In this document: piece by piece, positions 24,795-63,124 of the stretch
Position numbering within the stretch: the stretch's first letter is position 1
How the letters are laid out: the number at the start of each line of letters is the position of its first letter
From: a virus
IMG/VR virus record: IMGVR_UViG_3300046514_000653
Span: 12,303 to 76,302 of that record
DNA length: 64,000 bases
Direction: 5' to 3' (one strand)
Made by a program: the position numbers and the translations under genes
The notes under the pieces: generated by a model
Told to the model about the DNA's origin: nothing
Database searches by the model: none
The model's input: the letters and a program-made list of their open reading frames with translations, nothing else

Positions 24795-27700
24795 TTACTT
24801 CTTACGATTCCCTTTGCTGCCGTGGTTGCCTGTGATTGTAGCGTTGTAGCTGAACACTTCGGCCGGGATGCTGGAAGCGTTGCCCATTCCGTTAGTGAAA
24901 CCCGGCCATTTGTAAGCGCCGAGAGACACGTTGGAGAATTCACCGGCCTTGTTCACAAAGTTCGGATCGCAGTAGTAGCCAGCACGTGTCATAGAGCAGT
25001 CGCCCCAGATGGCGCCGTAGTATTTGAGGACGAAAGTTTTGGCTGCATTGCATTGAGAAACACCAAGTAGGCATTGAGCCTTTAAGTAAGCGGCTAGTCC
25101 GGTGGTTCCTTCCGCAGTGTTCACGCGCGATGTGAATTCACCTGTGCCGTCACCGAGGGTGGTAGTCAGCCCCATGAGCCCGCATCCAGGTTGCCCGGTG
25201 CTAGAGAAGGCGTGGATGGTGTCGAAGAGATGAACCGCGTTGGGGATTCCAGGTTCTTCGCAATCACCGGAGACGCGGTTATAGTACATGCCTAAGGTGC
25301 CGGGATTGTTGAGATCGAGTCCGTAGGTAGCCATCCAATTCCCCAACTGACCGCTCATCGTTTGATAAGCAGTGGAGATGGTGGAATTGGAATGCTTGGA
25401 TGCCCAACGCATGCCGGAGGCTTTGATACCGGTGAGCATAAAGCCCTGGAGTTCAAAGCCAGAAGTTACATAGCTGACCATGTGATTATCAGTAGTGGTA
25501 CCGGCCCTCTGATCCCATGGGCGATTGAGTTTGAGCTGTCCAGAGTTGACGTAGTGGCATGCCCAGAAGGGCTGAAGCATCTTGTTATTCGCGAGCCCGG
25601 CCGCAACCGTCACATCCGGCCAGTCAAGGTTGCTGACTCCGATGGAAGTCATGTAGCCACCACCGAGGCTATTGTCTTCCACCATGAAGTGATAGTCGCC
25701 GGCAGTGAGCCCCGGCCAGAGAGCGGCGAGGGTGACGTTGCCGCCGCTGACAGAGAACTGACGAGTGACGACTAGAGGAGGAGAGACGCTGGTGTCTGTG
25801 ATCGTGATGCGAGCACCGGGGTTGACCGTACCGCTGACTACTGTAGCGGCCGTCAAGCCAGGGGTGACGTGGATCAGACCTGTGCCGTCGTCGATACCAG
25901 CGCACATACCGGGCTTCACGATTCCGGTTGTTGGAGCTACGTTGGTAGAACCGTTAACGAGAGTCAGCGGGACAGACGCAGGATCGAAAATCGAAGCACC
26001 CGCCCACGAGTTTGTATAGACATTAGGAGTGCCGCCAGGGACGAAGCCAGCAGCGTATCCATCTACCGCATTACGACGGCAGGTTTCGTCGCGCGTTTTC
26101 CAAGCCAGCAAACCATTCACCCATGCTGTTTGCCGGGTGGGATCGGTATCTCCCAAAGCAGCCAACGCATTCCAGCCTTGCGGATAGCCCTGGTCGCGCG
26201 GGTCGGCAGTGTTGCAGTTAAGTAGTGCGGTCGCGGCTCCGGATGCTGCGAATGGTTGAATGTCCAACCAAGTAAGTGGGGTGGAGACGTTGAAGATCTT
26301 GTCGATGATACTGCCGACAACGCCACCACCGTAATCCAGCACAAGCCCACCCAGAGCCCCGGAGATCTCCGGATCTCGAATGTAGTTGTCATCGATCTTG
26401 TTGGCGCTAATGACAGCCGGTTTATATCCGCTACGATGTTCGAACCGCCGCTCCTGCAAACCTTCTGCATAGAAGTCCGGACCGAATGGACTCCCAGCAC
26501 TGATCAGATCTTTATAGCTGAATTGTCCAACCAACGGCATCAAGTTCAAAGCAGTGATGTCATGAGTCGCGGCACCAAAAGCCGTCGTCTCGGAAGCGCA
26601 ACCGGAGAGTTGAGTGAGAGCCCGATAGATGTTGCTGTTGGACGGAGAGGTGTAATCCAGCGAGGCGTACCGCAGGCTGGTGAATACATAGTTGAAATTG
26701 CCGGAGTCGAAGTTGGTAGGTAGCGGCCGGCTGATAGTGATGGATAGATTGTCGGCGGCGACTGCGGTTACAAATGCCCAAAATGAGAATGGCATGCCGG
26801 TGTCGTGGGTAGCGAAGACCCGGATGTAGACCTGCGCTTGCATGTTATGCATGCAATCAGTGTTGAGAATGCCTAAAGAAGACGGACCCACCCCGCACGA
26901 AGGAAATACGTTCTGTGTCCATGAAGCGGAATGCGCGGTCAATGTTGTGGACCCGGCCGTGCCGCTCACTGTGCCTGTGAAATAGAAAGCCTCACCTGGA
27001 GGGCCAGGAGCGCCGTTGGGGCAGAGAGCACGTACAGGGTCTGAGACAAAGAGAGTGCCGCTGCCTTGAATCAACATCTCGCCAACGGTAGTGGTAGATG
27101 GCCACATAGAAGCGGGAGCTATAGGCTGAGCGTTGAGGTAGAATGCTCCGGCCATGCCGCGCCCGTCGTAGCAGGTAGTGAGATCAGCATCACCAGTTGT
27201 GGCTGTGGTGGAAGCGATACAAACTTGCTCCTGTAATCCAACTCCACCTCCGGTAGAGCCATCATTACCGAGTGAATTCCCGATCAAGATCCAGGTGGGA
27301 GTGCCGGGAAGAGAGAGAAGGCCGTGGAGACATTCAGCGTGATGGATATGGATCGTCGTGTCGGTCGACATGATGTCGGCGGAAAGAGTCGCTTTGGTCC
27401 CGCCTGATACACCCGATCCATAACATCCTTGACCTGGAGCTGGTCCGATGCCAGCGATTGTATAAGTCACCGTACCGGTAGCAGGAGTCAGCCAAGTTGT
27501 CGTAGCAAAGTATGGATTGCCTGAAGGCTGGAGCTGATTGAAATTGCAATCCTGGCCGTTGAGCTGCAGCATGACCGCGGTACAGTGCCGCTCGTCCGCA
27601 TACCCGTATGGGTTTTGACCGAAGACGATTTGCGGCGCGTAAACTTGTTCTTCCAAATCAGACTGCACTAAAACACCATCGTTGTTGTAGTCAACGGCGC

Positions 27701-62374: not shown

Positions 62375-63124
62375 TTAAATCGTTATGGTCCACGTCACTG
62401 AAAGCGTGTCGCCGTTGAGCAGACTGGCGGACGAGAACGTATCTTCAAAGCACATCGTTCCAGACGAGACCGCTGTAAACACAGCCCCGGCCTGTGCAGA
62501 CTGTGTACCGGTCGCTGTGAAGGTGTGAGCAATGGTATAAGTCGTGGCATTGGCAGAGTGCGTGTAAGTTCCCTGTGCGCGTCCAAGCCCATTGGTAGTG
62601 ATCTCCGCTCCGACCGTTGTGGCTAGAGTCGTATCCCCAGCCGCGGGCGTGCCAGCGCCGTTAGAGAGCCCAATGTAATTGCACTGCGTGTTGACAGTGG
62701 GCGTAGTCGTATTGGACATGATGTCCGCAAGCCAGTTCAGCCCGGCGTTGACGACTAGATTCCAAGTAAAATTTGCCTGAACCTTTTTCCAGCAAAGCGA
62801 TTCGGCAGTCCCTGGATCTTCTCTATCGCCCTGATGATGCAGTTCTGCGTAAACCAGAGTTGCTTCCAAACTATCGGACATCTCCAGCTTATTTAATTCA
62901 GCTTGAGCCTCCGCAATGGAACAAACGCCAGTTGGACGCCGTTGTACAGTCAGGACTAGATTATGCTTACCAGGAAGGCGTGATACATCCTCCAGAATCG
63001 GGCGCCCGCGTCCCACTTGCGTTGCAGGACTGGAAGAGATCTGCACGGAATCTACGTTTTGAGCGGAAAGGGAAGGAACGACAAGAAACAGCGAGGTGAA
63101 GAGCGAGGCAAAGAACAGTCGCAT
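62375..63124 (-). CDS. phage structural/fibre-associated protein with signal peptide
   Basis: ATG 63124 with RBS AGGAG; MRLFFASLFTSLFLVVPSLSA-Q; NLVVNAG...YIGLS.G...P.AGDTTL..EI...GDTLSVTWTI. Confidence 0.65.
   Translation of the reverse strand: MRLFFASLFTSLFLVVPSLSAQNVDSVQISSSPATQVGRGRPILEDVSRLPGKHNLVLTVQRRPTGVCSIAEAQAELNKLEMSDSLEATLVYAELHHQGDREDPGTAESLCWKKVQANFTWNLVVNAGLNWLADIMSNTTTPTVNTQCNYIGLSNGAGTPAAGDTTLATTVGAEITTNGLGRAQGTYTHSANATTYTIAHTFTATGTQSAQAGAVFTAVSSGTMCFEDTFSSASLLNGDTLSVTWTITI

Follow-up and report, generated by a model that had tools for sequence, protein, structure and literature searches.

Sec-type leaders on seven late genes of a soil phage suggest export of fibre- and spike-type proteins

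We analysed a 64,000-nucleotide (nt) stretch of DNA (the window) from a long-tailed, siphovirus-type soil phage, which comprises bases 12303-76302 of one 76,302-bp virus contig (IMG/VR record IMGVR_UViG_3300046514_000653), and found that seven genes of its late arm, named SP1 to SP7 here (Table 1), begin with predicted Sec-type signal peptides. The seven proteins are very probably true Sec substrates that are exported and cleaved, since their leaders are canonical, are conserved in relatives and obey the rule that Gln is the first residue after the cleavage site (+1 Gln). The exported parts may join the phage particle by docking at lysis, a step whose chances we rate as even. Textbook assembly of tailed phages is wholly cytoplasmic. 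No paper discussing signal peptides on tailed-phage receptor-binding proteins was found among those searched, in which the +1 Gln rule (Q-rule) and the MAT fibres considered below are described.

The N-termini of SP1-SP7 all show one to four basic residues, a charge-free hydrophobic stretch and small residues at -3 and -1. Leaders were called with a crude home-made n/h/c rule, not with SignalP. The rule flagged 12 of 92 open reading frame (ORF) N-termini, SP1-SP7 all among them, compared with 143 of 15,282 random windows (0.9%) and 2 of 290 windows starting at an internal Met; neither of these two had Gln at +1. An earlier reading of this DNA from its letters (the sequence-only reading) had proposed leaders on these seven late genes and none on the core genes, and both proposals were borne out, as the capsid, portal, protease, TerL (large terminase), tube candidate, tape measure and tip genes were not flagged. 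Gln occupied +1 in five of the seven proteins (SP1, SP2, SP5, SP6 and SP7; P = 2.5e-6 at the genome Gln frequency of 4.2%). The lipobox L-[AS]-[GA]-C was found in 0 of 7, the LSPC of SP3 having Pro at -1, and a type IX C-terminal sorting domain gave no match in SP1-SP7 with Pfam (E <= 0.01) or NCBIfam (E <= 0.1). A Tat route for SP6 was rejected because its RRR motif is not kept in relatives. The hydrophobic core of SP4 is 18-20 residues, as long as a membrane helix, and its N-terminus may be a membrane anchor instead of a cleaved leader.

The strongest reason to regard the leaders as functional is their conservation in homologues. Leader and +1 Gln are present in four of four SP5 relatives (48-71% identity), and 10 Cys are invariant across the family; in one of them (P0013) the gene call adds 145 residues before the leader, which would make it internal. 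A search with SP6 against 1.84 billion representatives returned 1774 matches and showed a mosaic protein, whose residues 1-165 (the N-module) consist of the leader, a domain of ~100 amino acids (aa) and Gly-X-Y triplets and recur before many different C-terminal parts. Among the 18 relatives of this N-module, the leader is present in 17 and +1 Gln in 15, with the Gln column at least 90% conserved. The Q-rule has been described for signal peptidase I substrates of Bacteroidetes and some neighbours, in which the newly exposed end is capped by a glutaminyl cyclase (PMC5837995, PMC10653852), and it has been described only for real substrates of this peptidase (PMC5837995). Real cleavage is therefore supported, since a never-cleaved hydrophobic segment would have no reason to keep Gln at +1. 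The export proposed in the sequence-only reading thus stands on canonical leaders conserved in relatives at 40-70% identity, on the +1 Gln rule, on mature parts of fibre or spike type and on the place of the genes in the late operons. P0002 and P0003 were considered as close leaderless SP6 relatives and rejected: their N-termini align to residues ~41-115 of gp12 of phage Tunturi_1, past its leader, and their starts were probably called too short.

The ATG of SP5 directly abuts the stop of the tip gene, the start of SP3 and the stop of SP2 overlap in ATGA, and the ATGs of SP7 and SP2 lie 3 nt past the SP6 stop and 4 nt past the SP1 stop, respectively. GGAG-type sites are placed 6-7 nt upstream of the SP6 and SP1 starts (for SP1, ATG 63124, GGAGA at 7 nt). 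The public gene calls start SP6 at a GTG at residue 196 (711 aa) and SP3 at a TTG at residue 17 (109 aa), both downstream of the leader, and the database versions of these two proteins therefore hide the signal peptides. The long form of SP6 is regarded as coding because residues 14-165 are conserved in 18 other proteins; variation of SP6 among variant strains is mostly at every third base, as for purifying selection. In a soil variant (run X4), a 7-nt insertion, ATTCCTT on the plus strand, was seen at the SP7 start (window 31308-31316); on the coding strand it is a tandem AAGGAAT, which would put an AAGGA site at normal distance from the SP7 ATG.

Leaders were also seen outside the seven genes. 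On the other arm, the gene at 17513..18199 (plus strand; 228 aa) has a leader ending GMA/Q and a dockerin-like DVNGDGQVTTAD loop, and with this predicted site the +1 Gln pattern is phage-wide. In the relative L004 (tip protein 49% identical; 59% G+C), a small opposite-strand gene (9528-9950, minus strand) starts MKRLLISLLLYCLLVLTSVAALA/Q, and judging by this putative leader the +1 Gln habit extends to a wider phage group. Another leader-bearing gene (14069-14578, plus strand) encodes a C-terminus made up of VPEP, a membrane helix and a basic tail; it is PEP-CTERM-like and gave no NCBIfam match at E <= 0.1.

In the mechanism that we favour, SP1-SP7 would be expressed late, alongside the virion genes, threaded into the periplasm and cut by signal peptidase I, after which five of the mature proteins would begin with Gln, open to cyclisation to pyroglutamate by the host. 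The proteins would fold and trimerise in the periplasm as fibres, spikes and sugar-cutting beta-helices, and heads and tails would be built in the cytoplasm. At lysis, when the inner membrane and the wall are breached, the compartments would mix and the appendages would dock on the tail, the likeliest dock being the tail tip protein, whose gene is translationally coupled to SP5. Docking is physically plausible, as both P22 tailspikes and T4 fibres can be added to completed particles in vitro. Somewhat more tentatively, we propose a two-compartment assembly in which all outer parts for host recognition, namely SP3 (adaptor-like), SP2 and SP6 (fibres), SP5 (spike) and the giant SP7, would be made in the periplasm, could gain disulfides and a pyroglutamate cap there and would join the particle at lysis, and the same route may be used by many phages of hosts with a Gln-start secretome, including the Cellulophaga and Tunturiibacter phages.

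Docking is favoured because leader-bearing proteins with +1 Gln are on record in the virions of two Cellulophaga phages. We take phi10:1 to be a siphovirus, and phi18:3 is a podophage. All seven proteins gp091-094 of phi10:1 (NC_021802) and gp085-087 of phi18:3 (NC_021794) start with a leader cleaved before Gln, and GenBank marks them as structural, 'based on experimental MS/MS proteomics analysis' (MS/MS, tandem mass spectrometry). As in our phage, the genes form a run after the tail genes, and the records annotate pectate lyase, tail fibre and tail protein; the pectate lyase and a tail fibre protein are among those of phi10:1. These records are direct evidence that proteins of this kind accompany particles, and for SP1-SP7 they give the strongest, though indirect, outside support. 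The Cellulophaga phages differ in their marine Bacteroidota host, whereas ours is a soil phage using Shine-Dalgarno sites, and in that virion presence is on record for their proteins and a prediction for SP1-SP7. No paper discussing the leaders of the Cellulophaga phage proteins was found. A second parallel is Tunturi_1 (PP887698; L006 10371-23028), a lytic phage in culture whose host is the acidobacterium Tunturiibacter (PMC11924767). It has Sec-type leaders on five consecutive large late genes (gp12, gp13, gp14, gp16 and gp17), with +1 Gln on gp12, gp13, gp16 and gp17 and a leader without +1 Gln on gp14 ('tail spike protein'). The paper on this phage contains no proteomics and no mention of signal peptides (PMC11924767). 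Tunturi_1 resembles our phage in its soil origin and its G+C of 55%, and the N-terminal domain of gp12 is common to P0003, an SP6 relative. It differs in being a podovirus without other similarity, the pair P0003-gp12 being the only match when the late proteins and their relatives were compared (tblastn) with Tunturi_1 and Tunturi_4. The siphovirus Tunturi_4 is without such leaders.

Other known systems share single features with SP1-SP7. Tailspikes and depolymerases (P22/Sf6, phiAB6, LKA1 gp49 and the CBA120 TSPs) have parallels here in the right-handed beta-helix of SP5, the place downstream of the tip gene and the exchange of distal modules. The canonical tailspikes are leaderless and start with a particle-binding domain, whereas here a cleavable export signal and Gln are followed by no recognisable anchor. 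The MAT fibres of Bdellovibrio bacteriovorus (PMC10769870) are like the SP6 family in having a signal peptide, a beta-rich N-domain of ~100-130 aa, a trimeric stalk and swapped tips, a likeness of design only; they are encoded by chromosomal genes of a predatory bacterium and stand on its own surface, whereas SP6 belongs to a phage late operon and has a short collagen-like stretch. Prophages of Porphyromonas gingivalis carry Q-rule genes without assigned function, for which modification of the host outer membrane has been suggested (PMC10367356). Like most of SP1-SP7 these are phage-encoded signal peptidase I substrates with +1 Gln; the SP proteins differ in being large and of fibre or spike type, and in a host that is probably not of the Bacteroidota.

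Several observations weigh against docking on the particle. The 1433-aa tip protein could be the only receptor-binding protein, like lambda gpJ, and SP1-SP3 lie between TerS (small terminase) and TerL, where tail parts would hardly be expected. No particle-binding domain was recognised after the leaders of SP1-SP7; the beta-helix of P0012, an SP5 relative, starts ~12 residues past the cleavage site, and SP7 opens directly with an immunoglobulin (Ig)-like module. The fold of the SP6 N-module had no significant solved match (best Z 5.7), and the phage encodes further leader-bearing proteins that are not fibres. The Cellulophaga proteins have no detectable similarity to SP1-SP7 (tblastn) and are analogues, not homologues, and MS/MS of purified particles may pick up sticky contaminants.

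SP1-SP7 might instead be exported without ever becoming part of the virion, a minority possibility that is the main rival to docking. The alternative in the sequence-only reading, a secreted or cell-surface system, is of this kind. They would act late in or on the envelope, or as free trimers, stripping or masking exopolysaccharide or the receptor on dying cells and on cells nearby, so that the burst could disperse and the progeny would not be lost on debris. Such a role requires no new assembly route, and before the Cellulophaga records were considered it was slightly ahead, owing to the full-size tip, the lack of space behind the leader for an anchor domain in some family members (P0012, and SP7 likewise) and the other exported proteins. 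The resemblance of SP1-SP3 to a cassette inserted between TerS and TerL and the match of the SP6-type design to the cell-surface MAT fibres (PMC10769870) point the same way. It is countered by the large outlay that ~20% of the genome would be for accessories, by the usual need of a depolymerase-carrying phage for depolymerases on the particle for entry, by the coupling of the genes to the tip gene without promoter-like or terminator-like signals of their own, and by the analogous leader-bearing proteins recorded in virions of two cultured phages.

It is improbable that the N-termini are not cleaved export signals at all, being either uncleaved inner-membrane anchors or sequence upstream of the true starts. 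The late starts of SP6 and SP3 in the source calls, the SP4 core of transmembrane-helix length and the P0013 call with residues before its leader would agree with this, but the SP6 residues conserved in 18 proteins include the leader, the ATGs are start-stop coupled to upstream genes, and the cleavage motif and Gln are kept, which would be needless for an anchor or for non-coding sequence. Still less probable are host-derived morons that serve lysogenic conversion, for example adhesins or lysogen surface enzymes with no lytic role. Lambda lom and bor, which carry leaders and lie within or close to the tail region, offer a precedent for these. A further one is given by the Q-rule genes of the P. 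gingivalis prophages, for which a change of the host surface has been proposed (PMC10367356). Against morons stand the tight coupling to late structural genes, the phage-fibre-like fold and module mosaic, the promoter-like and terminator-like sites around the genes, which showed no excess over shuffles, and the count of bacterial chromosomal copies of the SP5 family or the SP6 N-module, which was 0 when 185,579 species genomes were scanned by pattern, once for each.

SP1-SP7 total 5115 aa or 24% of the window, in agreement with the earlier estimate of about 5100 aa and a quarter. The description of the mature parts as spikes, fibres and adaptors held for SP5, with its tailspike-type beta-helix, and for the modular SP6, and is weaker for the 'adaptor' label of SP3, whose match to the Pfam Gp77 fibre-tail adaptor (PF23148) scored 23.4 bits, under the curated cut-off of 27 (E 8.7e-5). 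In the AlphaFold2 (AF2) model of SP5, the predicted local distance difference test (pLDDT) was ~80 at residues 100-360 and 52 on average, the model being poor outside the beta-helix and of low confidence at residues 16-100. Foldseek matched this model to AlgE4 epimerase and to the phiAB6, Sf6 and LKA1 tailspikes (E 1e-4 to 2e-3). The pectate-lyase-like family PF12708 gave no match with SP5 at E <= 0.01, and the relatives P0012 and P0013 carry it, just clearing the cut-off. For SP6, AF2 was run on residues 1-170 only and gave a beta-sandwich with pLDDT ~90 at residues 50-130. A protein annotated as collagen repeat and 35% identical to the N-module is encoded by an uncultured Caudovirales phage; the collagen stretch of SP6 itself (six triplets) had no Pfam match, and the relatives P0009 and P0010 carry PF01391. 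The putative arrangement of SP6, a conserved N-module with variable tips, is a classic fibre design. Among the relatives of its beta-helix, the closer ones mostly have a leader and the distant ones are leaderless and ~400 aa; from their N-termini we read the latter as phage minor-tail-like. Residues 486-528 of SP6 match an annotated Gordonia phage minor tail protein, a 40-residue motif that was its sole cultured-phage match (tblastn).

The other proteins gave fewer leads. SP2 and SP7 had no match in Pfam, PHROG, PDB or cultured phages, SP1 had none in cultured phages (tblastn), SP4 had no family match, and the search for SP3 relatives returned SP3 alone. A protein Atlas query yielded no more than weak leads (top score 0.88). 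Viral-contig scans with the SP6 N-module and with P0008 gave no match, nor did a PDB sequence search with the tip protein, and no significant BLAST pairs indicated anchor modules shared among SP1-SP7 or with the tip. Two further proposals of the sequence-only reading were not sustained. Richness in paired Cys was rejected as a mark of export, because the Cys fractions of SP1-SP7 (0.9-2.7%) overlap those of cytoplasmic enzymes and are no higher than in the phage's own replication enzymes, though the invariant Cys of the SP5 family remain, and C82 and C102 of the SP6 N-module are conserved. Glycosylation was unsupported, as the sequons N-x-S/T and D-[ST]-[AILVMT] were not enriched, with counts near expectation in most proteins.

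Table 1. Late-arm features of the window, with the predicted leaders of SP1-SP7 (a slash marks the predicted cleavage site)
Feature	Coordinates	Strand	Start	Predicted leader	Description
TerS (small terminase)	63874-63191	-			head module
SP1	62375..63124	-	63124	MRLFFASLFTSLFLVVPSLSA/Q; residues 1-21 (SLSA/Q)	249 aa; C-terminal half matches phrog_5417, function not assigned; just downstream of TerS
SP2	59644..62370	-	62370	MLRKKWLLRYFFLIFVSVVGSA/Q; residues 1-22 (GSA/Q)	908 aa; Ser/Thr 26%; ~30-aa repeats at residues 590-870, fibre-like
SP3	59270..59647	-	59647	MINKLLWLSTLALSSFLSPCVQA/E; residues 1-23 (VQA/E)	125 aa; small, beta-rich
TerL (large terminase, gpA)	59238-57046	-			head module
Portal, lambda-family	56348-54510	-			head module
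S49 protease	54460-52559	-			head module
Major capsid protein, E-type	51982-50957	-			head module
SP4	49294..49725	-	49725	MESMTFKRYLGAFGLLLLSALFVFVLPISNPPLSVHA/A; leader ~37 aa or signal anchor	143 aa; between head genes and head-tail joining genes
Tape measure	44647-40835	-			tail
Tail tip protein	35977..40278	-			tail; 1433 aa, without leader
SP5	34135..35976	-	35976	MKTAIFVLLSSVLLG/Q; residues 1-15 (LLG/Q)	613 aa; right-handed beta-helix ~residues 100-360 and Cys-rich C-terminal domain; tailspike-/depolymerase-like
SP6	31314..34034	-	34034	MNRRRLGSFVVQLVTSICFCFLLLSSALHA/Q; residues 1-30 (LHA/Q)	906 aa; N-module beta-sandwich ~45-130, six Gly-X-Y ~130-148, beta-helix region ~145-537, swappable modules after
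SP7	24795..31310	-	31310	MKQTLLALLFAVSAAA/Q; residues 1-16 (AAA/Q)	2171 aa; two Ig-like-looking modules (by eye), each opening one of two ~450-aa N-terminal segments

The late arm is read on the minus strand between ~63.9 kb and 24.8 kb; tail genes follow its lambda-type head module, and the G+C of the window is 52-55%. Terminase identity to the nearest cultured phages is only ~37%; near-identical variants and variants with 95-99% identity are present in soil and rhizosphere metagenomes. The tip protein is 48-49% identical to the tips of the relatives L003 and L004 over residues 1-1312. SP5-SP7 occupy the slot right after the tip gene, and in L003 and L004 the same slot holds just one gene, for a fibre or pectate lyase without a leader (in L004 a 956-aa fibre). 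A leaderless cassette of similar layout in the distant phage L002 was considered as kin of SP1-SP3 and rejected, its similarity being too weak (best E 0.003).

Intergenic sequences of the late arm are marked by the 11-bp palindrome CTAGTWACTAG, of which 20 copies with at most one mismatch were found genome-wide against 0.3 expected; it precedes SP6, TerL and TerS, and its presence before SP6 speaks against an independently expressed cargo gene. Two copies lie at SP6, one within its leader codons and the other just upstream of the gene (33988-33998 and 34046-34056).

Shine-Dalgarno-like sites precede 45% of the genes against 13% in the background. Shine-Dalgarno use argues against a typical Bacteroidota host. 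A soil bacterium, with Acidobacteriota as the candidate, is a reasonable guess for the host and no more; it is based on the Shine-Dalgarno use, the soil source, the mid G+C, the PEP-CTERM-like gene and the leader and Gln pattern of Tunturi_1.

If receptor-binding proteins routinely pass through Sec, virion completion would depend on the host export machinery and on the timing of lysis, and the fibres could bear modifications made only in the periplasm (disulfides, pyroglutamate). Gene callers and annotators that trim leaders, as for SP6 and SP3, would then hide a common trait, such depolymerases and fibres may need periplasmic expression, and host-range prediction may have to consider the secretion rules of the host. 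The question is directly testable in the cultured phages phi10:1, phi18:3 and Tunturi_1.

Two minor observations concern neighbouring genes. At its C-terminus the tip protein bears an additional domain of ~115 aa (residues ~1318-1433, window 35977-36321) with a QDATGGR motif, a domain that the L003 and L004 tips lack; a similar motif is found in the 145-residue extension of P0013 and inside the N-module fibres P0008, P0088 and P0089. At the end of the late strand, a 257-aa esterase/lipase (21651-22424, minus strand; phrog_21992, E 3e-17; GHSLGAA motif) adjoins small membrane proteins at 22639-23287, and it may be a member of the lysis cassette that acts on the outer membrane.

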